Shown one piece after another: positions 15,727 to 37,641 of a stretch of DNA of 64,000 nucleotides. The first letter of the stretch is position 1. Each line of letters begins with the position of its first letter. The DNA comes from Verrucomicrobiales bacterium. GTDB lineage: Bacteria; Verrucomicrobiota; Verrucomicrobiia; Limisphaerales; UBA11358. The position numbers were made by a program, and so were the translations under genes. The notes under the pieces are model-generated. The model ran no database searches and was not told the DNA's origin. It saw only the letters and a program-made list of their open reading frames with translations. Location of the stretch: positions 67,368 to 131,367 of the forward strand of contig JAQTQB010000004.1 in assembly GCA_028712475.1 (NCBI GenBank). The letters are read 5' to 3'.

Positions 15727-17094
15727 GTGCCGAAGAAATCCACGCGCCAGCCAAAACCGCTTTACCGCCAGAAGAAGCCTAAAATTAAAGGCGATGATTT
15801 TGTCCATGCCGAGCCGATTGTTCCCGCGCATTTTGAACTCCGCGAAGACGGAACGATTGACGTTGCCAAGCGCGACGAGAAACGCGCCCCGGTTCTGACC
15901 TTCCGCGACGACACCCGCAACCTCTGGCTCTATCAAGGCAACTCCCTTGAATTGCTCGACGCCATCGCCGCCAAACATCCCGAAGGCCGGTTTGATTGCA
16001 TCTTTGCCGATCCACCGTATTTCCTTTCCAACGGAGGCATCAGTTGCCACGCCGGGCGGATGGTGAAGGTGGACAAGGGCGACTGGGACAAATCACGCGG
16101 TGCGGAAGTGAATCACGAGTTCAATCTGGAATGGCTCAAACGCTGCCAGAAAGTTTTGAAACCCAACGGCACAATTTGGATTACCGGCACGCATCACGTC
16201 ATTTTCAGCATCGGCTATGCGATGCAACAACTCGGTTTCAAAATCCTCAACGACATCGCATGGGAAAAGCCTAACCCGCCGCCGAATCTTTCCTGCCGTT
16301 ATTTCACCCACTCCACCGAAACCATTTTGTGGGCGGCCAAAAGTGAAAAATCCAAGCACCTGTTCAACTATCAGGAAATGCGCAAGGTCACGGGCAAGCA
16401 GATGAAAACCGTCTGGCGTGCCAGTGAATTTGGTGGTAGGGCGCGTCACTCCGTGCGCGCCGATGCTGGTCAGCCAGAAGACGGCGCGCAGGGGACTGAC
16501 GCGCCCTACCTTGACCCCATTTGGACGATGACTGCGCCGGGCAACGGCGAAAAGACCTTTGGCAAACATCCCACGCAAAAGCCGGTGGCGCTGGTCGAGC
16601 GTTGCATCTTGGCCTCCACACAACCCGGCGACATGGTGCTTGACCCGTTTTTGGGCGGCGGCACAACTGCCGTGGCTTGCGTCCGGCTGAATCGTGGCTG
16701 CATCGGGATTGAATTGGACTTCTCGCATTTCACGCTGGCGGCCAAACGTGCCGACCGAGAAATCATTGAACTTTGGCTGCGCGAATTCCGCGTGCGTTTC
16801 GACGTTACGATCTTTTTTCCTAATGATCTTGATCTCTTTTCTGAAACGATCAATGGATCAAGCGCGACGATGGACGACAAACCTCAAGTGCCGACCGAAA
16901 GCATTTACCACGAATGTAAATTCGTGTTCCTTTCGTGCGCCCAAGTCGAGCGCGGCGCGGTGGTTCACACGACGGTGGACGTGAGCTTGCAAGAAGCATG
17001 GGCGAAAACGCCGAATGGAAAGAAACGCGAGACGACGCACGTTGTCAGGTGTGAGACGGAAATTTTTCGTGTGGCTGAAAAGAAGCCGGTCTGA
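15727..17094 (+). CDS. Beta-class DNA methyltransferase (N6-adenine or N4-cytosine) with an uncharacterised C-terminal extension of about 100 aa
   Basis: Motif IV IFADPPYF precedes HPTQKPVALVERCI and motif I VLDPFLGGGTTAVAC. Residues after about 350 match nothing I recognise. A palindromic repeat is inserted in frame at 16435..16510. GTG start. Confidence 0.85.
   Translation: MPKKSTRQPKPLYRQKKPKIKGDDFVHAEPIVPAHFELREDGTIDVAKRDEKRAPVLTFRDDTRNLWLYQGNSLELLDAIAAKHPEGRFDCIFADPPYFLSNGGISCHAGRMVKVDKGDWDKSRGAEVNHEFNLEWLKRCQKVLKPNGTIWITGTHHVIFSIGYAMQQLGFKILNDIAWEKPNPPPNLSCRYFTHSTETILWAAKSEKSKHLFNYQEMRKVTGKQMKTVWRASEFGGRARHSVRADAGQPEDGAQGTDAPYLDPIWTMTAPGNGEKTFGKHPTQKPVALVERCILASTQPGDMVLDPFLGGGTTAVACVRLNRGCIGIELDFSHFTLAAKRADREIIELWLREFRVRFDVTIFFPNDLDLFSETINGSSATMDDKPQVPTESIYHECKFVFLSCAQVERGAVVHTTVDVSLQEAWAKTPNGKKRETTHVVRCETEIFRVAEKKPV
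16435..16510. repeat. 76-bp palindromic repeat (family B) inside the methyltransferase CDS
   Basis: ggtagggcgcgtcactccgtgcgcgcc ... ggcgcgcaggggactgacgcgccctacc forms inverted arms. The first 28 nt are identical to 36214..36241 in hsdM. Here it is translated as [25 protein letters not shown]. Confidence 0.85.
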
Positions 17095-17108
17095 TATGAA
17101 TTGCGGCG

Positions 17109-17870
17109 ATGCCGCAGCCAATCACATGGAAACAACTCGTTGCCGATGCGTTACAAAACCTCGGCGGCGAAGCCTCGCTCAAAGACATCACCGCAAAGTT
17201 AGAGAAAGATCCTCACCGGCCAGAGACCGCAACTTGGCAAGCAACAATCCGCCGTGTTGTTCGTCAATACAGTATTTTTCAATCAGTTAAAACCCAGCAA
17301 GGCTTGGCAGGTTATCGGCTTGTTCAAATGCCGAAGCCAAACCCTTCGGCGCAAAGCAAGTCAGACCCACACGGTGAGCAACAGGGAATGTTGCTGCAAT
17401 TGGGCGCTCTCTGCGGTTACGAAACATTTACCAACTCGACGGACAAGACCATTCGCAAATTTCAGGGCGAACCAATCTCAAGTTTCGCCACTGTGCGAAA
17501 TGATGCTGATGACCTGCTGGCTCTACCGCTCGAAAAAATGCGCAATACGGATGTAATGTGGATGGCTTCAGACTCGGAAGGGCTATATCCCCGTTATGCT
17601 TTTGAAATTGAGCACAGCACAAAGGTCAAAAGCGGCTTGCTCCGGCTTTTAAAGATTCCAGAGCGTTTTCCAACGAAACTATTTGTGATTGGACCTGGAG
17701 ATGAAGAGGCAGATTTATTTTCGCGTTATTTGCGTGAGTCTCCATTCAGACAACACGCGCACCGATTCCGTTTCTATCATTACAAGGAGGTTTCGGATTT
17801 TTATAAAAGCGGCATCAACTTCGATAAGCATCGCAAAAACTGGGAGATTCAATTTGCCAGCGCGTTTTAG
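17109..17870 (+). CDS. Putative type II restriction endonuclease (PD-(D/E)xK-like core, N-terminal winged-helix-like region)
   Basis: It starts 15 nt after the methyltransferase stop. A candidate nuclease motif is NTDVMWMASD..YAFEIEHSTKVKSG (D...E-x-E/K pattern). The region is AT-richer than its surroundings. The call rests on context and the motif only. Confidence 0.5.
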   Translation: MPQPITWKQLVADALQNLGGEASLKDITAKLEKDPHRPETATWQATIRRVVRQYSIFQSVKTQQGLAGYRLVQMPKPNPSAQSKSDPHGEQQGMLLQLGALCGYETFTNSTDKTIRKFQGEPISSFATVRNDADDLLALPLEKMRNTDVMWMASDSEGLYPRYAFEIEHSTKVKSGLLRLLKIPERFPTKLFVIGPGDEEADLFSRYLRESPFRQHAHRFRFYHYKEVSDFYKSGINFDKHRKNWEIQFASAF

Positions 17871-18661: not shown

Positions 18662-18889
18662 GTGGAACTGGACGGCAGCCAGCACGGTTTCCCCGACCAG
18701 CGGAAACACGACGAGGAACGGGAAAAGTTTCTGCAATCGCGCGGCATCAAGACGCTGCGGTTTTGGAATTCGCATTTGCGACGCAACGCACAAAGCATCC
18801 GTGACACGATTTTCGATGAGTTGCAGGCACGCGCTCCGCGTCCCTTGCCGGAATACACCCGACCGATGAAAGTTGTAAGGAAAAGTTAG
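18662..18889 (+). pseudogene. C-terminal fragment of a DUF559 (Vsr-like endonuclease domain) protein
   Basis: (V)ELDGSQHGFPDQRKHDEEREKFLQSRGIKTLRFWNSHL matches the DUF559 core pattern (E-x-DG-x-x-H ... D..R...L...G..vlRF.N). The N-terminal part is missing. It starts 2 nt after the methyltransferase fragment. Confidence 0.6.
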
Positions 18890-27556: not shown

Positions 27557-30500
27557 TCAAACCGCCCACTCGGCGCACAGCAGCCTGGCCTGCTCCAAAA
27601 CGGTTTGCGTGGCCTTCTCCTGCTTGTCTGGCGGATAGCCGTATTTGCGGAGGATGCGGCGGACGAGGACACGGATTTGAGCCTGGGCAGATTCGCGCAG
27701 CGTCCAGTCAATCGTCACGCTTTTGCGGACGTGTGAGACTAACTCGCGGGCGATGTCCTTTAATGTGGGTTCACCAAGAACTTTCACGGCGCTGTCGTTC
27801 ACTTCCAACGCGTCGTAAAACGCAACTTCATCATCCGTGAGGCCGAGGTCTTTGCCGCGCTTATGGCCTTCGCGCATCTGCTTGGCGAGTTCGATGAGTT
27901 CTGCAATGACCTGCGCCGCTTCAATGGTTCGGTTTTGGTATTTGCGGATGGTGGCTTCCAGCATTTCGGCAAACGAGCGGGATTGAACGAGGTATTTCTT
28001 CGAGCGGATTTTCAGTTCGTTGTTGAGCAGCTTTTGCAGCAACTCGACGGCAAGGTTGCGCTGGGGCAAATGCTGGACTTCCGCCAGGAACTCGTCGGAC
28101 AAAATTGAAATGTCCGGCTTCTTCAACCCGGCGGCGTCGAAGATGTCGATGACCTTGTCGGATGAAATCGCGCGGGAAACAATTTGCCGGACGGCCAGCT
28201 CCAATTCTTCCGGTGATTTTCCGCCGCCTTCGCTGATGCTCTTGGCCAGCACGGCGCGGACTTCCTGAAAGAATCCGACTTCATCACGAATCTCCAATGC
28301 CGAGTCATGCGGCACAGAGAGAGCGAACGCCTTGGACAGTTCCGTGACTGCCAACAGGTAGCGCGGCTTGCCGTCTTTTTGCTGCAACACATGCTCGGCG
28401 GCTTGTGCAATGAGCGGCAGCCTCTTTGCCGCTGTTGCCTTGGCCGCGCCCTCGTAATCAAACCCGTGCAGGATGGCGCAGACCTGCTCGTATTTCTCCA
28501 GCATCACGGCGACGGCTTCTTCCTGATCCAGCGTGATGTCGCCTTTGCCTTTGCTGTTCGTGTAATCGGCCAGCGCCTGTTTCAATTCCTCCGCCAGTCC
28601 GAGGTAATCCACCACCAAGCCGCCGGGCTTGTCTTTGAAAACCCGGTTCACCCGCGCGATGGCCTGCATCAGGCCGTGACCGCGCATCGGCTTGTCCACA
28701 TACATCGTGTGCAGGCTCGGCGCATCAAAGCCGGTCAGCCACATGTCGCGCACGATGACGATGCGGAACGGCTTCTTCGGATTCTTGAACGCTTTCGCCA
28801 GTTCCTCGCGCCTTGCTTTGCTGCGGATGTGTTGCTGCCACTCCAATGTGTCGGAAGCCGAGCCGGACATGACGATCTTCATCGTGCCTTTGTCATCGTC
28901 CTCGTGATGCCAGGCCGGGCGCAGTTTCTGGATCGCCTTGTAAAGCTCCACGCAGATGCGGCGGCTCATGCAGACGACCATCGCCTTGCCTTCCATCGCG
29001 GCGTAACGCGCTTCCCAATGCTTCACCAAATCCTCAGCCACGAGCGCGATGCGCTTGTCCGTCCCGACCATCGCTTCCAGTTGCGCCCACTTCCGGCGCA
29101 GACTTTCCTTCGTGGATTCCTCCGCATCTTCCGTCACTTCTTCAAAGTTCGGGTCAATCTTCGGGCGTTCCTCCGGCTTCAAATCAATCTTCGCCAGCCG
29201 CGCCTCGTAATAAATCGGCACGGTGGCCTTGTCCTCCTTCGATTGCAGAATGTCGTAAACGTCAATGTAATCGCCGAACACGGCCTGCGTGTTCTTGTCG
29301 CCACTTTCAATCGGCGTGCCGGTGAAGCCGATGAACGACGCCTTGGGCAGCGCATCCCTCATGTGTTTGGCGAAGCCGTCAATAAAATCGTATTGGCTGC
29401 GGTGCGCTTCGTCAGCGATGACGACGATGTTGCGCCGGTCGGATAGCAGCGGATGCTTGCCGCCTTTTTCATCGGGAAAGAATTTCTGAATCGTGGTGAA
29501 CACCACCCCGCCGCTGGCGACGTTGAGCAACTCGCGCAAATGTTCCCGGCTCTCCGCCTGAACGGGTATTTGCCGGATCAACTCTTTGCAAAAGGAGAAC
29601 GTGTCGAAAAGCTGGTCGTCCAGATCGTTGCGGTCGGTGAGCACGACGATGGTGGGATTCTCCATCGCCGGGTGCTGCACGATTTTTCCGGCGTAGAAAA
29701 CCATCGAAAGACTTTTGCCGCTGCCTTGCGTGTGCCAGATGACGCCCGCCCGTCTGTCGCCGATTTGATTCGTAGCAGCCGACGTGAGTCGGCTCTGACT
29801 TTCCGCTGGGGAATTAGAATGAGCGGACTCACGTCCGCTGCTACCAGTTAAAGCAACCCCCGCCGCCTTCAACGTAGATTCCACCGCCTTGTTGACTGCG
29901 TGGAATTGGTGATAGCCCGCCAGCTTCTTCACGACCTTTTCGCCATCATCTTCAAAGACGATGAAGTTGCGGACCAAGTCCAGCAGACGAGCCTTCTCGA
30001 ACACGCCTTTGAGCATGGTTTCCAGTTGCAACGAACCGGGCGGCACAAGCTCCTTGCCGGTGATGGTGCGCCACGTCATGAACCGCTCCCAATCCGACGT
30101 GACCGTGCCGAGCCGCGCTTCGTGGCCGTCCGAAATCACCAGCAGCGCGTTGGAGTGGAACAGCGACGGGATTTGCGCCTTGTAAGTCTGGAACTGGTCG
30201 AACGCCTTGCGGATGGTGGCCTGTTCGTCCGCAATGTTTTTGAGTTCCAGCAGTGCCAGCGGGATGCCGTTGATGAACACCACTACGTCAGCGCGGCGGT
30301 TGAAATGGCCTTCCTCCACTGTGAATTGATTGACCGCGAGGAATTCGTTGGCTTCGGGATTCGCAAAATCAATCAGCCAGACCTTGTCGTGAACGATTTG
30401 CCCTTCGCGGTTGCGAAACTCCACGTCCGCGCCTTCAACAAGCAGGCGATGAAACGCGCGGTTGTTTTCGATGAGCGTCGGATGGCTGATGAGCCGGAGT

Positions 30501-30721
30501 TTCCGCAACGCTTCTTGCAACCCTTCCTGCGGAACCTTGGGATTCAAATCCTTCAGCTTGGTTTGCAACCGGTCGAAAAGAAAAACCTGCTTGTAATCCG
30601 CGCGCTCCGCCGCCGGTTCGCCCGGCGCAATCGCCAGTCCCGACAAAACTTCGTATCCCAGCCCACGAAGCCAGTCGAGCGCGGCATCCTCCACGACAGA
30701 TTCGGTGATGCCTTTGCTCAT
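27557..30721 (-). CDS. hsdR: Type I restriction enzyme R subunit (HsdR), with a 72-bp in-frame palindromic insertion
   Basis: 1054 aa. N-terminal nuclease region, then helicase motifs [29 protein letters not shown] and QAIARVNR. The repeat-derived segment [24 protein letters not shown] sits just before motif I. Confidence 0.95.
29772..29843. repeat. 72-bp palindromic repeat (family C) inside hsdR
   Basis: gtagcagccgacgtgagtcggctc + 24-nt spacer (tgactttccgctggggaattagaat region) + gagcggactcacgtccgctgctac. The 24-bp arms are near-perfect inverted repeats. Related copies are at 53738..53813 and 56392..56467. Confidence 0.85.
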
Positions 30722-31834
30722 TTATGCAGGCTCAGGCAGTGTTTCGCTGAATTGTAGCCGCATCCAGCCCAGCACAACCAGATTACGGATGGCGTTGGCC
30801 AGTGCCTGCTGCTTTTCCTCCGTGCGCCACGTTTTTTTCCAATCCAGAATGAACTCGTAAAGATCGCGCTCGGCAACTTCTTGCTGGGGTTTGGATCGCT
30901 TCAATTGACGGCTGGCAAACAGCACCGTCAGCACTTCCTCGGCTTGCTCGGTGTTTTTGATGCGGCTGAATAAATCCACGGTCTTGGCAATCTTCCGCTC
31001 GTGCCGCTTCAAGATTTCCTCGTATTTCGCTCGCTCCTTTTCGTATTGTGGGCCGACGCGCAACGCGATCATCTGGCCCAAGCGTTCCTCGTGCAGCCAG
31101 TTCCGGTTCGCGAAATCATGCAGCGCCAGTTTCACCTCGTCGGCAAAAGGCCCGTAGCTGCCTTTGCCAAACTTAAAACCAGTCTCGACTCCCATTTCCG
31201 TGACGACGTAGCAAATCTTTTGAAAGATCGTCCGACCCACTGGATTCGCGTAGGGCTGCTTCTCCAACTCCCGCAGAACTTCCATCAGGACAACCCACTC
31301 AGGATTTAACTTCTCGTGCTTACGACCCCGACCATCCAATTCCATCTGCGCCGGCCCGGCCAGAAAATCTTCCTCCAACTGCGTCTTTGAAGTTCCGTAG
31401 GGGGCATAGACTTCGATCTCGATGTTGAGATGCCGCAGCTTGCCATACATCAGCGGCCCGACTTCCTCCCAACTCAATCCGCCGTTGCCGCAACCGAGCG
31501 GCGGGAACGCCACGCTCTTGACGCCCCATTCCGCATGATGTTGCACGAAATAATCCAGCCCGCGCTCGATGTCCGCCAAACGCGAGGGCGACCGCCAATG
31601 ATCCTTCGTCGGAAAATTCACAATCAGGATTCCTGAACGGTCACGGAAAAGATACGGCTCGCCCAGCCGCACTTGCTTCCGTTCACACCGTTCGGCGTAA
31701 TCCTCAAACATAGCTGGATAGCGCTTCTTGAATTCCTGCGCGACGCCCTTGCCCATGATGCCGACGCAGTTCACCGTGTTCACCCGGGTCTGGGCTTGGC
31801 TTGCAAACAAATCGCCTAAGAGTGCTTTGAACAT
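30722..31834 (-). CDS. darG: DarG antitoxin (N-terminal macrodomain ADP-ribosylglycohydrolase + C-terminal DarT-binding region)
   Basis: N-terminus ..VNTVNCVGIMGKGVAQEFKKRYP..LIVNFPTKDHWRSPSRLADIERGL..VAFPPLGCGNGGLSWEEV closely follows the DarG macrodomain pattern. It lies immediately downstream of the DarT-like gene. Its stop abuts the hsdR ATG. Confidence 0.88.
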   Translation of the reverse strand: MFKALLGDLFASQAQTRVNTVNCVGIMGKGVAQEFKKRYPAMFEDYAERCERKQVRLGEPYLFRDRSGILIVNFPTKDHWRSPSRLADIERGLDYFVQHHAEWGVKSVAFPPLGCGNGGLSWEEVGPLMYGKLRHLNIEIEVYAPYGTSKTQLEEDFLAGPAQMELDGRGRKHEKLNPEWVVLMEVLRELEKQPYANPVGRTIFQKICYVVTEMGVETGFKFGKGSYGPFADEVKLALHDFANRNWLHEERLGQMIALRVGPQYEKERAKYEEILKRHERKIAKTVDLFSRIKNTEQAEEVLTVLFASRQLKRSKPQQEVAERDLYEFILDWKKTWRTEEKQQALANAIRNLVVLGWMRLQFSETLPEPA

Positions 31835-31840
31835 GGCTGG

Positions 31841-32428
31841 TTATCGGAAAAACATTTGTGGACTGATGGTAATCGGAAGGCCAAAGCCCTGCGATTGTAA
31901 ATTTGCCGCCGCCGCTTCGTCCACGGCGTATGCCCCGGTCAGAAACCGTGGCTCGACACAATGCGGCACGAGCACTTCCGCACACTTTTGCGAACGGTGA
32001 CGGTAGTAGGCAATTGGGTCGTTCGCGTGCCGCCAGTCCATCGCGAAAATCGCGTCGTAGTCCAGCACCCCTTCCTGCCTCGGATGCAGGAAGCGAACAT
32101 AGTCACTCGACGCATTGCGATCCGCGAACACCACGCCGTCAATATGCCTCACTTCCGTTGACACCCGCAAGACGCACAACGTCGCCGCTGTGTCCTTGCG
32201 TTTGAAGAGCATCGGATTGCGGGCGTGAAAATAAAGGTTGGCGTATTGATGCAGCTTCAAACCACCGGGAACGTGCTTCAAGTCGCGCCGTTCCTGCACG
32301 ACCTCCAGTGCCACGGAATAATGCGGCACTTTCGCCGCGCGCTCGTTCGACAGAATCCCGAGCTTCACGACCGACGGAATGTTTTCCAACGGCATGATGC
32401 ATTGAAATTCTGTGACGCGGGCGTTCAT
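31841..32428 (-). CDS. darT: DarT (DUF4433) ssDNA ADP-ribosyltransferase toxin
   Basis: ..ERRDLKHVPGGLKLHQYANLYFHARNPMLF.., ..VVFADRNASS.., ..QKCAEVLVPHCV.. parallel the DarT motifs (H-x-Y-V-PFYF..R-x-PML, FTD.., AEFLV with the catalytic Glu). The start is ATG 32428, or TTG 32437 (a 4-nt overlap with the upstream gene). Confidence 0.8.
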   Translation of the reverse strand: MNARVTEFQCIMPLENIPSVVKLGILSNERAAKVPHYSVALEVVQERRDLKHVPGGLKLHQYANLYFHARNPMLFKRKDTAATLCVLRVSTEVRHIDGVVFADRNASSDYVRFLHPRQEGVLDYDAIFAMDWRHANDPIAYYRHRSQKCAEVLVPHCVEPRFLTGAYAVDEAAAANLQSQGFGLPITISPQMFFR

Positions 32429-32433
32429 TTCAA

Positions 32434-33369
32434 TCAAGAAGCCAGCTTGTGCTTCACATCAACCGCAAATTCTTCCTTGTTGATCTTTGAACTCAAGCGG
32501 TCGTTGTTCAAATACTTCAGTATGTTCTCAATCGTGCCTTCGTCGGCAATGATACGCCCCTTGCTGTCATAATTGAGCCCCCATTTGTCAGACTTGTTAA
32601 TTCTCCGAAGCGCCTTCAGATAATCGGGCTTGCGATAATAGGCGGAGTTCTTCACTTGTGAAAGCCTCCGAAGGCGGGTGACGTTATTGCCGATAAGCGT
32701 TGTTATGTCTTGAGCGTTGGCGAAGAACCCGAGGGTTTGGAATTCTTTAACAATTTCGTCGCGGTTTCGCTCCATCCCCTCTCTAAAGTTGAGTGCCGTT
32801 TCAAAGTTCTTTTTGTCAGCCACAAACAACACTCCATCGAATGAGAAGAAGTCAATTTTGGAATCAATTCGGAAGATCTCTCCTTGCTCCAGATCCACCA
32901 ACATGTTGTTTTTGAAAATCGCATTCACCAATTGCGATACCTCTTTGGCTATCCAGCCGGAGGAGATTTTTCTCGCTCCATACAAAGATGGCGTGTTTGG
33001 CAAATCCAGACGGGCGATATAAAGCCATGAGCCAACAAGGTCGTCGTAGCTATTTGCACCCTGAACATCTCCATTGCTGATTTGGTCAATCACCGCCTGG
33101 AGATCTGTCTCGTCTGTTTTGAGGCCCAACACATCATCATCCAAATCAGCCGTGTTGAAGTCGTATTGCCGAACGGCATTGCTGCTCAAAATTTTTCCTT
33201 TGGTAATCGTTCTTACCTTTTTTGCCAAAGCCGCATCAACGTTCACGTTCAGAACTTCGTAGTGAGCATCCCGATGAACCAACCTTCGCTTCACCACATA
33301 GAAAGACACGGTTGCATTCTGCCATGGATGGTCCTTGGCGTTCTTCAGGCTGGTTTGGAGTTGGCTCAT
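32434..33369 (-). CDS. KwaB-like (DUF4868-like) protein, candidate Kiwa effector
   Basis: 311-aa soluble protein directly downstream of a 4-TM protein. The C-terminal half (..IDFFSFDGVLFVADKKNFETALNFREGMERNRDEIVKEF..) resembles my memory of DUF4868. It is AT-richer than the flanking hsd genes. No search was run, so the family call is provisional. Confidence 0.5.
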   Translation of the reverse strand: MSQLQTSLKNAKDHPWQNATVSFYVVKRRLVHRDAHYEVLNVNVDAALAKKVRTITKGKILSSNAVRQYDFNTADLDDDVLGLKTDETDLQAVIDQISNGDVQGANSYDDLVGSWLYIARLDLPNTPSLYGARKISSGWIAKEVSQLVNAIFKNNMLVDLEQGEIFRIDSKIDFFSFDGVLFVADKKNFETALNFREGMERNRDEIVKEFQTLGFFANAQDITTLIGNNVTRLRRLSQVKNSAYYRKPDYLKALRRINKSDKWGLNYDSKGRIIADEGTIENILKYLNNDRLSSKINKEEFAVDVKHKLAS

Positions 33370-33924
33370 TTAGACTTTGGGGTTAACCGCAGTGACAAGA
33401 AATAGCTGTTCGGAAAGCTCTACGATTCTGCACTGGTCACTTGCTTTCAAACGCGGACCTTTGACCAAAAAGAAATCTTCCCTCTCTTGGCCGTTCTTCT
33501 CGTATTGAACGTCATAAAGGTTATAGCCAAGACAGGCCAAAATTGGGTTCACGAAGATGTTGTGTGTTTTAAGGGTCATCCAATACATGATGACCATGAA
33601 AAAGCCGAAGGAGAGCAGCATTTTGATGTCATCCAAGTTGATCACGAAGAACGAAACCAGATAAGGGATGCTGTAATTCACCAACTCACCAGAGCGATTG
33701 GACACTTTTACAATCTTGACTGTCGGAGTTGAGGTTTTGAGAAAGCGGACCGCAGCCCAGATGACAATGCAGGAAATAATTGAAATGCCGACGATGGGCA
33801 AAACAATTTCAGGATGCTTCAAACGCCAATCTGGAAGTTCAAAGTCTTGAATGAGAAAAATTACGGACAGCGGAGAGTATGCGCTGATGAAAATGAGAAC
33901 CGACGATAAAAAGCGGAGTTTCAT
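33370..33924 (-). CDS. KwaA-like four-TM membrane protein
   Basis: ATG 33924 (MKLRFLSSVLIFISAYSPLSVIFLI..). Four hydrophobic helices are followed by a soluble tail of about 55 aa. The start is 2 nt from the hsdS stop, and the stop abuts the next gene's ATG. The longer ORF to 34020 overlaps hsdS and was discarded. Confidence 0.5.
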   Translation of the reverse strand: MKLRFLSSVLIFISAYSPLSVIFLIQDFELPDWRLKHPEIVLPIVGISIISCIVIWAAVRFLKTSTPTVKIVKVSNRSGELVNYSIPYLVSFFVINLDDIKMLLSFGFFMVIMYWMTLKTHNIFVNPILACLGYNLYDVQYEKNGQEREDFFLVKGPRLKASDQCRIVELSEQLFLVTAVNPKV

Positions 33925-33925
33925 A

Positions 33926-35149
33926 TCATGTATTCCCTTTCTGTATTGGCACGCGCAACTCGCCCGACAGTAGCTTCGGCAGCAGCGCGTCGCGCAGCGC
34001 GGCGAGGGTGCGGGATTCAAGCAGATTGTTCCGAATGCGTTCCATCAATGGCGAAACCTTTTCTTCAAACTGCTCAACAACTGCCGCAAGCGGCAAAGTT
34101 ACTTGCACACCCGCCAACGTGTCCCGCGTGATTGTGTCGAAGACAGAACCGTGTGCGTGCTGTTGAAGCTGTGAAACAAGCGCACGCGTTACGAAATAGG
34201 AGTGGAAACCTTTCGTGCCCGCTTTGCCACGAAGTCCGTAGCACGATTGATTCATTGCCATTGGAACACCAACCAACGCGACTTTGCCAACCGTTCCGCG
34301 AGCGGAAATGATAGTGGTGCCTATTGGCAAAACTTGAGTGGACGAATTATCAACGCCCGCTTGGGTGATTTTCTTTTCCGTGTCTATCACGAACAAATCT
34401 GAACCTTGCGGCGCGTCCACAACTGAGAACCACGGAATGTCACCGCTCCAATACTCAGCCACAGAAGTTTTGGGCGTGCCGCCGCCGATGATTTCAACGG
34501 TTTCGGTGAACGGCACTTCGCGCCAGCCTTTGGGGAGGGCGGATTGGGTGGCGTCCACGAACCAGGATTTGAACAGGCTCTGGGCCAGCGCCTCCATCGT
34601 CTCGTTCATCCGCCGGTTCAACTCAATCTTGTCGTCCAGCGCACCCAACACCGAAGCAATGGCGTCGCGTTCTTTTTTGGGCGGAAGTGGAATGGGAATA
34701 TTTGCAAGATCGCGCAGGTTGAACGTTGCTTGAACCGTCGTTGTTGCGCGTGTCCCGATGAAATTCTGACTGAGAGAAGACCGCAGACAAAGCTCAACCC
34801 AACGCGATCCAATTTCCGTTCTAACCGGAATCACGCCAACAGCGCGAGCGACGTTCCAGCCTGCTAATTCAGTCGGAACAACTGCCGATTCACCGAGCGA
34901 CCCCACGAGCGTGAGAAGCACTTCACCACCACGAAGTCGTGAGCGTCTATATTTCGCTTCAATGTCGCTGGAAACACGAAGCGCGTCACCGGTTTCAATT
35001 CGCCCAAATTTGATATTGTTGACGCGAATTACTGGAACACCATTGGCAGCATGAGAACCGGGTTGAACAATGCCGTAACAGATACCGCGCTCTTTATCCA
35101 CCAAGTCGGACAACACCTGATGCTCCCAATTTTCTGGCAACGCATTCAC
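33926..35149 (-). CDS. hsdS: Type I restriction-modification specificity subunit (HsdS)
   Basis: 407 aa with two target-recognition halves. Each is followed by a conserved helical spacer (..LGALDDKIELNRRMNETMEALAQSLFKSWFVD.. and ..EKVSPLMERIRNNLLESRTLAALRDALLPKLLSGEL). GTG start. Confidence 0.9.
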   Translation of the reverse strand: MNALPENWEHQVLSDLVDKERGICYGIVQPGSHAANGVPVIRVNNIKFGRIETGDALRVSSDIEAKYRRSRLRGGEVLLTLVGSLGESAVVPTELAGWNVARAVGVIPVRTEIGSRWVELCLRSSLSQNFIGTRATTTVQATFNLRDLANIPIPLPPKKERDAIASVLGALDDKIELNRRMNETMEALAQSLFKSWFVDATQSALPKGWREVPFTETVEIIGGGTPKTSVAEYWSGDIPWFSVVDAPQGSDLFVIDTEKKITQAGVDNSSTQVLPIGTTIISARGTVGKVALVGVPMAMNQSCYGLRGKAGTKGFHSYFVTRALVSQLQQHAHGSVFDTITRDTLAGVQVTLPLAAVVEQFEEKVSPLMERIRNNLLESRTLAALRDALLPKLLSGELRVPIQKGNT

Positions 35150-35224: not shown

Positions 35225-35325
35225 AGGGACTCCAACGACGGAAGATTACTCACGCCCGCCAGTGACTGAAGGGACTCAAGCGACGGAAAGGGGCGCTTCG
35301 TTTTGGTCGTTCGAGTCCTTGAAGT
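35225..35325. repeat. Hairpin-forming repeat built from gggact/aaggac-type units, downstream flank of the four-helix-bundle gene
   Basis: gggactccaacgacggaag .. gggactcaagcgacggaaagg .. cgttttggtcgttcgagtccttgaagtc. A related element in the same orientation lies at about 35895..35975 (ggacggaagggacttcaaggacggcgagggactgcgag..cgctttggtcgttattgtccctttagtcc). Confidence 0.65.
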
Positions 35326-35993
35326 CATTTCCACCCTCCTTGCTGGGCGCGGGCCGCGAGGCGGGCGCGGGTCATGCGTTCGCGCAGGCCGCCTTCTTTC
35401 AGGAAATCCTGTTCCAGGCGGCGGAGTTGCTGGTCGAGCAGGTAGTTGGTCACCTTGATCAAACCCACAATCACATTGGCGCAGATGGCGGGGTCGGGAT
35501 GCTCGATGCCTTTCTTGAAGGTGTCGTAATTTGCGCCGGGCGTGCGGTTGAGCCGGCGCAAGCGCTGGGCGTAGCGGTGGTCGGGCGTCCATTCCTCGAT
35601 TTTGCGGGCGCGCATGAAATCGCGGTAATCTTCGAGCAATTCCTCCTGGCTGGCGCGGGCCACGTTGGTGAGCTTGAGTTCGGTTTCCTTGGATGTGCCG
35701 CTGGCCTGGCTGCCTTCGAGGATGTTTTGTTTGCCGGAGCGCGCGGCCTGCACCATCTGGTCGTGGGTGCGGGACTTTTTGTCAACAAACCGGTCACAAA
35801 AATACTGCGTGGCCTGAAACACCACCAAGGCTTTCTGGTAGGAGAGGAGTTCCTGGTAGCCGCCGTGAGCGGGGATGAAGCCATCAGCATCATCCGGAGG
35901 AAAGGACGGAAGGGACTTCAAGGACGGCGAGGGACTGCGAGTTGCCGTCGTCGCTTTGGTCGTTATTGTCCCTTTAGTCCTTGGCTCAGGCAT
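35325..35993 (-). CDS. Four-helix-bundle protein with suffix domain (23S rRNA intervening-sequence-protein-like family)
   Basis: Core ..[80 protein letters not shown].. matches this family. The first 30 or so codons (..[22 protein letters not shown]) are read through a repeat element, so the true start is uncertain. It overlaps the hsdM stop by 8 nt. Confidence 0.75.
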
Positions 35994-37641
35994 GGCTCAG
36001 GGCTTTTAAGTTTTGCCGGATGGCTTTCTCCAGCTTGGCAGATTCCGCAAACTGCGTTTCCAGAGTCTGAATGAGCCGCTTCATCTTTTCCTCGAAGGGT
36101 TCGCCGTCGTCCTCCACATCCGCTGCGCCCACGTAACGACCGGGCGTGAGGACGTAACCGTGCGAGGAAATTTCTTCGAGCTTCACGGATTTGCAAAAGC
36201 CCGGTTCGTCCTGGTAGGGCGCGTCACTCCGTGCGCGCCGTTCACTTGTTTTGCCACCAGCGGCCGGCAGAGGACTGCCAGCCCTACCTTCTTTGGACTT
36301 CCACGCGTGGTAACAGTCCGAAACTTTTTTGATTTCCTCGGCGGTCAATTCCCGGTGGATGCGGTCAACCAGCACGCCCATTTTCCGCGCATCAATGAAA
36401 AGCGTCTCACCACGCCGGTCGCGGCGTTTGTGGTTCTTCTTGTCGCGGGCCAGAAACCAGAGGCAGACGGGAATTTGCGTGGTGAAAAACAACTGGCCGG
36501 GCAGCGCGACCATGCAATCCACGAGGTCGGCTTCAATCAACGCCTTGCGAATCTCGCCTTCGTTCGAGGTCTGCGTGGACATTGAACCGTTGGCCATGAC
36601 GAATCCCGCCACGCCCACGGGCGAGAGGTGATGGATGAAATGTTGAATCCAGGCGTAGTTGGCGTTGTTCACCGGCGGCATCCCGAATTTCCAGCGCACG
36701 TCCTGCCGCAGATTTTCGCCGCCCCAATCGCTCATGTTGAACGGCGGGTTGGCGAGAATAAAATCGGCCTTGAGGTCGGGATGCAAATCCTGCCGGAAGC
36801 TGTCGGCGTTGCGCGGGCCGAGATTGGCGTCAATGCCGCGAATGGCGAGGTTCATCCGCGCCAGTTTCCAGGTGGTGTAGTTGGATTCCTGCCCGTAAAC
36901 CGCGATGTCGCCCACGCGCCCGCCGTGTTCTTCCACGAATTTTTCCGAGGACACGAACATGCCGCCCGAACCGCAGCACGGATCGAACACGCGGCCTTTG
37001 TAGGGTTCAAGCATGGCGACGAGCACCTGCACGACGCATTGCGGGGTGTAGAACTCGCCGCCGCCCTTGCCTTCCGCGCTGGCGAATTTGCCGAGAAAGT
37101 ATTCATAGACGCGCCCAAGCACGTCCTTGGACTTCGCCGCCGATTCGTTGAAGCCGATGTTGCTGATGATGTCCACGAGTCCGCCGAGCCGGACTTTGTC
37201 GAGGCTGGGCCGGGCGTAATCGCGCGGCAGCACGCCTTTGAGCGTGGGGTTCTCGCGCTCAATCGCGCCCATCGCGTCGTCAATGACCTTGCCGATCTCC
37301 GGCGATTTGGCCCTGGCCTTGATGGTGTGCCAGCGGGCTTCGGGCGGCAGCCAGAAGACATTCGCGGCCAGGTATTCGTCGCGGTTCTCGGCGGCTTCGG
37401 CCCGTTGCGGTTCGTCCTTGATGAACCATTCGCTCTTGGGATTGGAGAAGCCGAACAGCAGTTGTTCGCGTTTTTCCTCGAAGGCGTCGGAGATGTATTT
37501 CAGGAAGATGAGGCCAAGGCAGACGTGCTTGTATTCCGACGCGTCCATGTGTCCGCGCATCTTGTCGGCGGCGGCCCAGAGCTGGGCTTCAAAGTTCAGG
37601 CCGGAGTCGTTGGACTGTTTCTGATTGTTTCCTTTAGCCAT
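35986..37641 (-). CDS. hsdM: Type I restriction-modification methyltransferase subunit (HsdM), with a 75-bp in-frame palindromic insertion
   Basis: N-terminal HsdM_N ([32 protein letters not shown]), motif [14 protein letters not shown] and motif [10 protein letters not shown]. The repeat-derived [27 protein letters not shown] sits in the C-terminal loop before [20 protein letters not shown]. Confidence 0.95.
36214..36288. repeat. 75-bp palindromic repeat (family B) inside hsdM
   Basis: ggtagggcgcgtcactccgtgcgcgccg ... ggcagaggactgccagccctacc. The first 28 nt are identical to 16435..16462. Confidence 0.85.

Follow-up and report, generated by a model that had tools for sequence, protein, structure and literature searches.

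We analyzed a 64-kb stretch of DNA from an uncultured Verrucomicrobiales bacterium (the window, by which we mean this whole stretch at its full length) and focused on two adjacent minus-strand genes that lie inside the operon of a type I restriction-modification (R-M) system. A sequence-only reading of the window had described these genes as a module of a small membrane protein and a 311-aa soluble protein and had proposed that they were either Kiwa-like or a new membrane-anchored system. Both open reading frames (ORFs) are present where that reading had placed them; the small protein has 184 aa rather than the 185 it had given, and the motif it had quoted, IDFFSFDGVLFVADKKNFETALNFREGMERNRDEIVKEF, is found in the 311-aa protein. 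We refer to the genes as kwaA and kwaB, after the families to which we assign their products. Reading the junction in the sequence revealed that the TAA stop of kwaA directly abuts the ATG of kwaB. A search for KwaA homologs returned 148 proteins, and among the 120 listed all carry PF28043 and nearly all are 184 aa in length. A longer, 216-aa version of kwaA, started from a TTG and extending to 34020, was therefore rejected: it would run into hsdS, and its length finds no support among the homologs.

Family and fold of KwaA and KwaB

The resemblance to DUF4868/KwaB that had been suspected for the 311-aa protein held up in profile searches. KwaB matched Pfam PF16162 (KwaB/DUF4868) over residues 125-297 with 108.1 bits (E 7e-31), against a gathering cut-off of 26.3, and it matched the PADLOC model PDLC00235 from residue 2 to residue 310 of 311 (E 9.7e-96); six further PADLOC KwaB sub-models matched more weakly. 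A search for its homologs returned 178 proteins, with PF16162 in all 120 matches listed. The protein consists of an N-terminal alpha/beta (Rossmann-like) domain followed by a C-terminal DUF4868 domain. We built an AlphaFold2 model on alignment A1 (mean pLDDT 78), and compared it with the PDB using Foldseek. Only six matches reached E <= 0.001, and all six were KwaB chains (9nyu, 9mtn, 9mrx), with E values from 3e-9 to 4e-7, a probability of 1.0, alignments of 318-333 columns, and TM scores of 0.44-0.50; the next match had an E value of 0.28. Model confidence is low in one place only, residues 139-169, which matches the position of the flexible DE loop of Escherichia coli KwaB (residues 134-174); in the E. 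coli complex this loop touches KwaA at its second transmembrane helix (PMC11785009).

For the small protein, the PADLOC model PDLC00215 matched residues 2-178 of 184 (E 9.8e-47), 12 further KwaA sub-models also matched, and phmmer connected it directly to the solved E. coli KwaA (9mrg, 9mrr, 9mrx), with an E value of 6.6e-6 for 9mrg. A public protein identical to it (P0121) carries a precomputed match to Pfam PF28043 KwaA. The four hydrophobic helices that had been claimed by eye are resolved in the AlphaFold2 model (pLDDT 77) at residues 5-27, 38-60, 78-94, and 100-120; in a hydropathy scan, three stretches came out as hydrophobic (roughly 3-28, 35-65, and 94-118). Strands in the model occupy residues 68-76, in the loop that joins helix 2 to helix 3, and residues 134-143, 146-155, 164-169, and 174-180, and the C-terminal domain is accordingly beta-rich, with four strands in the last 50 residues. 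This layout agrees with the published topology of KwaA, in which four transmembrane helices are combined with a cytosolic beta-barrel formed from an intracellular loop and the C terminus (PMC11785009). The top seven Foldseek matches of the KwaA model in the PDB were all KwaA (9mrx, 9mrr, 9mrg), over the full length and with TM scores of 0.58-0.73.

We conclude that the pair is a divergent but clear copy of Kiwa and represents known biology in a known kind of setting. The Kiwa-like identity offered by the sequence-only reading is borne out for both proteins, by PADLOC matches and by the fold matches to solved KwaA and KwaB, and the same clear matches dispose of its other option, an undescribed system of membrane sensor and effector.

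Boundaries of the cassette and organization of the host operon

The pair had been described by eye as AT-richer than hsdS and hsdR on either side, consistent with a separately acquired cassette. The difference in composition is real: GC content is 0.436 in kwaA and 0.466 in kwaB versus 0.537 in hsdS, 0.574 in hsdR, 0.593 in hsdM, and 0.581 in the window. The arrangement had to be corrected, as the neighbor on the kwaB side is darT, and hsdR lies beyond darT and darG. The segment 32434-34018 has a GC content of 0.465, the lowest of any stretch of that size in the 64 kb (window mean 0.581, SD 0.033; lowest value elsewhere 0.491).

Homology at the DNA level gave boundaries that agree with the composition and support separate acquisition. 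By blastn, identity of ∼88% to the nearest relatives (L001, L002, and L015) is confined to 34018-32434; it starts at 34017/34018, the point where the drop in GC begins as well, and ends at 32434/32439, that is, at the kwaB stop. The stretches compared were 8848-10933 of L001 and 1-4200 of L015. L015 shares a second piece of hsdS, 34664-34493, at 92% identity, which we take to be the central conserved region, and the part of hsdS between the two pieces has no match in L015, as expected if a target-recognition domain had been swapped. The cargo behind kwaB differs among these loci: DarTG in the window, a PsyrT helicase in L015 (E 2e-245), and Gabija (GajA and GajB) in L001, where the gene before kwaA is a chimeric remnant that joins an HsdM N terminus to an HsdS C terminus. 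Rfam and tRNA scans of the window found nothing, so the cassette has neither a tRNA integration site nor a known RNA element beside it.

On the minus strand, the operon runs hsdM, a four-helix-bundle gene, hsdS, kwaA, kwaB, darT, darG, and hsdR (Table 1). All three hsd genes are intact and on one strand, and DarT, followed by DarG with its N-terminal macrodomain, is intact as well. The four-helix-bundle gene overlaps the end of hsdM by 8 nt and leaves a 175-nt gap before hsdS; its product, of the 23S rRNA intervening-sequence protein family, matched Pfam 23S_rRNA_IVP below the cut-off. The darT ATG lies 5 nt past the kwaB stop, and a 195-aa gene is called there on an identical contig (L014); the real darT start is thus probably this ATG at 32428 (195 aa) and not a TTG at 32437. 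DarT scored below its NCBIfam cut-off (92 versus 150), whereas DarG and HsdR exceeded theirs (antitoxin_DarG, 287 bits versus 250; TIGR00348, 631 bits versus 285).

Table 1. Genes and segments of the hsd operon that holds the kwaA-kwaB pair, in minus-strand order.
Feature	Position	Strand	Description
hsdM	35986-37641	minus	First operon gene, methyltransferase; PADLOC MTase_I E 3e-216, NCBIfam hsdM match
Four-helix-bundle protein (4helix_suffix)	35325-35993	minus	222 aa; NCBIfam TIGR04258 E 3e-21, TIGR02436
hsdS	33926-35149	minus	Specificity subunit; PADLOC Specificity_I E 8e-89; stop 1 nt before kwaA ATG
hsdS 3' end travelling with kwaA-kwaB	33925-34018	minus	Last ∼31 codons plus 1-nt spacer; left boundary of low-GC cassette
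kwaA	33370-33924	minus	184 aa, ATG at 33924; predicted Kiwa membrane sensor and anchor
kwaB	32434-33369	minus	311 aa, ATG start; soluble; predicted Kiwa DNA-binding effector
darT	31841-32428	minus	ssDNA ADP-ribosyltransferase toxin; Pfam PF14487 E 8e-28; PADLOC DarT E 6e-32
darG	30722-31834	minus	Macrodomain antitoxin; PADLOC DarG E 8e-92; Pfam Macro domain E 5e-20; stop abuts hsdR ATG
hsdR	27557-30721	minus	Last operon gene, restriction endonuclease/translocase; PADLOC REase_I E 0, 1107 bits

From hsdS through hsdR, the genes are separated by 1, 0, 5, 6, and 0 nt, which leaves no room for intergenic promoters or terminators. A consensus scan found no promoter-like site on the minus strand upstream of kwaA, and terminator-like sites were no commoner than in shuffled sequence. 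With such tight spacing and no promoter-like site upstream of kwaA, it is likely that kwaA and kwaB are co-transcribed and translationally coupled with their neighbors; the scan fits this arrangement and proves nothing by itself. The only minus-strand sigma-70-like matches in the operon fall within genes, at 32635-32662 in kwaB (10/12 positions, about 210 nt upstream of darT) and at 31894-31923 in darT. These might drive darTG and hsdR as internal promoters, or they might have arisen by chance.

The genes that flank the operon encode acyltransferase, GNAT, and GAF proteins, and also a polyphosphate kinase (read from the translation and unconfirmed by family search), and PADLOC found no defense-family match among the flanking proteins. 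These housekeeping flanks, along with the identical KwaA in a public metagenome-assembled genome, fit a chromosomal Verrucomicrobiales locus. A second patch of low GC lies elsewhere in the window, on the plus strand at 15727-17870 (GC 0.49 near 16801), and encodes an N6/N4 DNA methylase of 455 aa and then a 253-aa ORF that has no Pfam match; together they may form a type II R-M pair. A short ORF just beyond this patch, at 18662-18889, looks like a fragment of a DUF559 endonuclease from a reading of its translation.

Relatives of the pair and their linkage to hsd genes

Relatives were collected from exact-protein look-ups, genome contigs (single-protein query, 3 loci), and metagenomes (alignment A1, 39 loci). 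The resulting 54 loci were compared with the window proteins by tblastn and fell into 25 clusters at 90% KwaB identity. Co-occurrence of the two genes, which the earlier reading had suggested as a check, is conserved: of the 22 clusters whose DNA extends far enough upstream, 21 have kwaA immediately ahead of kwaB. The ratio of nonsynonymous to synonymous substitution rates (dN/dS), calculated against the two nearest relatives, is 0.03-0.14 for kwaA and kwaB, which means that both genes are under purifying selection. In addition, the identical segment was recovered in an independent assembly (L014).

The two genes rank their nearest relatives differently. KwaA is 95% identical to that of L001 and 86% to that of L015, whereas KwaB is 95% identical to that of L015 and 90% to that of L001. 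Such discordant identities suggest recombination between kwaA and kwaB, as has been described for the Kiwa family overall, which also shows signs of horizontal transfer and of partly independent histories of the two genes (PMC11785009). One locus from a Desulfobacteraceae (L005, 10001-10618) retains only the C-terminal two-thirds of a kwaB homolog, residues 106-311, with no kwaA or hsd genes detected within 10 kb either side of the fragment, and is probably a decayed copy. A phage collection yielded no match to this clade, and a plasmid collection yielded distant relatives only (23-26% identity, annotated DUF4868 or KwaB-like); these searches thus gave no evidence that the clade rides on known phages or plasmids.

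Linkage to R-M genes extends well beyond the window. In about 12 of the 17 clusters with informative flanks, hsd genes are adjacent and on the same strand, and members of the clade sit within a type I R-M operon, or immediately behind one, in L006-L011, L012, L013, L016-L029, L031, L033-L035, L042-L044, L048, and L052. The carriers are unrelated bacteria, including Verrucomicrobiota, Sulfuricella, and various metagenome-assembled genomes. In these relatives kwaA usually starts between a few and about 30 nt from the hsdS stop. Two arrangements recur. The embedded order (hsdM, hsdS, kwaA, kwaB, optional cargo, hsdR) is found in L012, L013, L023, L024, L027, L042, and L043, and in L013 an AAA_13 ATPase gene separates hsdS from kwaA. 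The trailing order, with kwaA and kwaB directly after hsdR, is found in the L006 group, beside Hachiman and TerB/BrxC-like genes. Embedded and trailing relatives are more distant from the window pair (50-60% KwaB identity, other phyla). Cargo in the embedded relatives includes TIR and 8xMP genes; further cargo, recognized from translations and unconfirmed by family search, is Fic-like, RhuM-like, DUF1016/YhcG-like, or a GHKL-type ATPase. No same-strand adjacent hsd genes were found in L004, L021, L049, L050, and L053.

Interpretation, alternatives, and known systems

We consider it very probable that kwaA and kwaB make up a Kiwa system directed against phages and plasmids, acquired horizontally as a cassette of low GC content that entered by recombination at the conserved hsdS 3' end, where it now sits beside DarTG in a type I R-M operon. 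Several results weigh against this interpretation. Both proteins fall below the curated cut-offs of the NCBIfam equivalog models (NF041622 for KwaA, 70.9 versus 100; NF041623 for KwaB, 38.4 versus 200). These appear to be narrow models built around E. coli-type proteins; the scores mean that the pair is not a close equivalog of the E. coli type, and membership in the family stands. Because the scores lie under the cut-offs, public records read "hypothetical protein" or "DUF4868 domain-containing protein", as for the public proteins P0121, P0021, and P0029, even though PADLOC and newer Pfam families call Kiwa. Identity to the E. coli proteins in structural alignments is about 12-13% for KwaB and 17-20% for KwaA, and neither phmmer nor a 23-sequence clade profile reached solved KwaB among PDB sequences. 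The clade is too distant from E. coli KwaB for sequence methods, and it was the comparison of folds that gave the link. That fold match is itself moderate (TM about 0.5, root mean square deviation 8-9 Å), probably because the two domains of KwaB are placed differently relative to each other in the model. Of the KwaA-KwaB interface positions at which the E. coli proteins were mutated (KwaA K75/V76/N77 and Y181/F183/K194; KwaB R21/R35/Y157 and P100/N101/Q103; PMC11785009), KwaA Y181 and F183 align with I167 and E169 in the phmmer alignment to 9mrg, in which the register is unreliable at ∼20% identity, so details of the E. coli interface are not transferable. Finally, the trigger and specificity of this clade may differ, because the Kiwa variants that have been tested differ in their phage range (PMC11785009).

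How the pair might work can be sketched from the E. coli system, in which tetramers of KwaA and dimers of KwaB form a fence-like supercomplex at the membrane (PMC11785009). That complex is triggered at sites of phage attachment and DNA ejection and also by conjugation, the probable cue being altered curvature of the membrane; next, KwaB binds DNA non-specifically via DUF4868 and does not cut it, replication forks are stalled, late transcription is blocked, and the cell survives rather than undergoing abortive infection (PMC11785009). Protection against phage or conjugation needs both genes (PMC11785009). By homology, the window KwaA would be a four-helix inner-membrane subunit and KwaB a cytosolic DUF4868 DNA-binding subunit, and a supercomplex of the two would sense the membrane distortion caused by a phage or by conjugation. 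KwaB would then bind the incoming DNA without cutting it, so that replication forks would stall, late transcription would be blocked, and the cell would survive. A single operon would in this way supply three layers of defense, namely type I R-M, Kiwa, and DarTG.

The recurrent position next to hsdS raises a broader idea, which we hold only tentatively and think rather unlikely: that this branch of Kiwa (184-aa KwaA and ∼311-316-aa KwaB; PDLC00215/PDLC00235) is specialized for type I R-M operons, anchored at the hsdS 3' end and spread by hsdS recombination, with a variable cargo slot behind kwaB, and perhaps cooperating with the restriction enzyme. In one variant, KwaB would hold incoming DNA at its site of entry while HsdMSR acts on it; in another, two DNA-binding defenses would split DNA-mimic anti-restriction proteins between them, much as Kiwa and RecBCD split Gam. 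In a limited literature search, which does not establish novelty, we found no report of an association between Kiwa and type I R-M, of Kiwa in the hsdS-hsdR gap, or of an hsdS-anchored Kiwa clade.

PrrC of the EcoprrI locus is an anticodon nuclease whose gene lies between hsd genes and which is physically regulated by the R-M enzyme. The window pair resembles PrrC in its placement, and it might likewise be a dependent accessory of the type I R-M system, gated by HsdMSR or recruiting it, either to hold DNA at the membrane for restriction or to step in as a backup once R-M has been disabled by anti-restriction DNA mimics. Same-strand linkage in about 12 of the 17 informative clusters, the usual start of kwaA close to the hsdS end, and the piece of hsdS that the cassette carries along all speak for such dependence, as does the fact that Kiwa already shares a DNA-mimic inhibitor, Gam, with RecBCD, another DNA-targeting defense (Gam inhibits KwaB; PMC11785009). 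We nevertheless judge it improbable. Coupling to R-M is a feature of PrrC that Kiwa does not need. Five cloned Kiwa systems that represent different clusters were protective by themselves in E. coli (PMC11785009). The available flanks of L004, L021, L050, and L053 are without an hsd gene, and L001, where the adjoining hsd gene is no more than the chimeric remnant, keeps kwaA and kwaB intact and under purifying selection. Moreover, the gap between hsdS and hsdR serves generally as a landing site, with DarTG2 and TgvAB as examples of unrelated defense genes there, so linkage alone needs no functional explanation.

It is far less probable still that the cassette is an inactive relic, decaying and without current defense function. 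In favor of this, its composition is atypical for the host, a promoter of its own was not found upstream of kwaA, and a truncated kwaB without kwaA exists in L005. Set against this, both ORFs are full length relative to the profiles, dN/dS is low, the exact segment is present in an independent assembly, and the close packing of the genes keeps translation of darTG and hsdR downstream intact. That the pair is a new sensor-effector system unrelated to Kiwa has next to no probability: what speaks for it is the low pairwise identity of the two proteins to their E. coli counterparts, together with the sub-threshold equivalog scores, and it is refuted by Pfam, PADLOC, and PDB sequence matches that are all Kiwa, by significant or top fold matches that are exclusively KwaA and KwaB, and by a gene order, protein sizes, and topology as in Kiwa.

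Kiwa itself is already known and structurally characterized (9mrg, 9mrr, 9mrx, 9mtn, 9nyu), and so is the nesting of defense genes in the hsdS-hsdR gap. Like the window pair, Kiwa of E. coli O55:H7 RM12579 and of ECOR strains is a two-gene operon, kwaA and then kwaB. Its KwaA (∼185-195 aa) spans the membrane with four helices and has a cytosolic beta-barrel, and its KwaB has ∼310-315 aa with an N-terminal alpha/beta domain, a C-terminal DUF4868 domain, and a flexible loop in the same place; it also shares the signs of horizontal transfer and partly independent histories of the two genes, and about half of Kiwa loci have been assigned to prophages, plasmids, or genomic islands (PMC11785009). 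The window pair differs in its low identity, its PADLOC sub-models, its scores below the NCBIfam cut-offs, the nonconservation of Y181/F183 in the single, unreliable KwaA alignment, its host, and its embedding in a type I R-M operon.

There are precedents for the embedding. In the RRDM island of enteropathogenic E. coli, DarTG2 lies between hsdS and hsdR, a site described as a potential recombination hotspot for defense genes (PMC12255303). The window likewise has DarT and DarG in the hsdS-hsdR gap of its type I R-M operon; it differs in that the gap holds two systems, Kiwa and then DarTG, and in that hsdM and hsdS are separated by a four-helix-bundle gene. TgvAB of Vibrio cholerae VPI-2, a type IV restriction system of two genes embedded in the type I R-M cluster there, is also an autonomous two-gene defense nested inside an hsd operon, which was read as layered defense (10.1101/2024.04.04.588119); its proteins are unrelated (GmrSD-like nucleases), and it has no membrane component.

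For annotation, the value of these results is that an apparently unknown pair becomes a known defense system in a Verrucomicrobiales genome, where three defense systems (type I R-M, Kiwa, and DarTG) form one tight array about 10 kb long. The repeated anchoring at the hsdS end, along with the swappable cargo, supports the view of the hsdS-hsdR gap as a recombination hotspot for defense genes. If the linkage did reflect functional cooperation, it would add a modest new point on how defense systems are coordinated.

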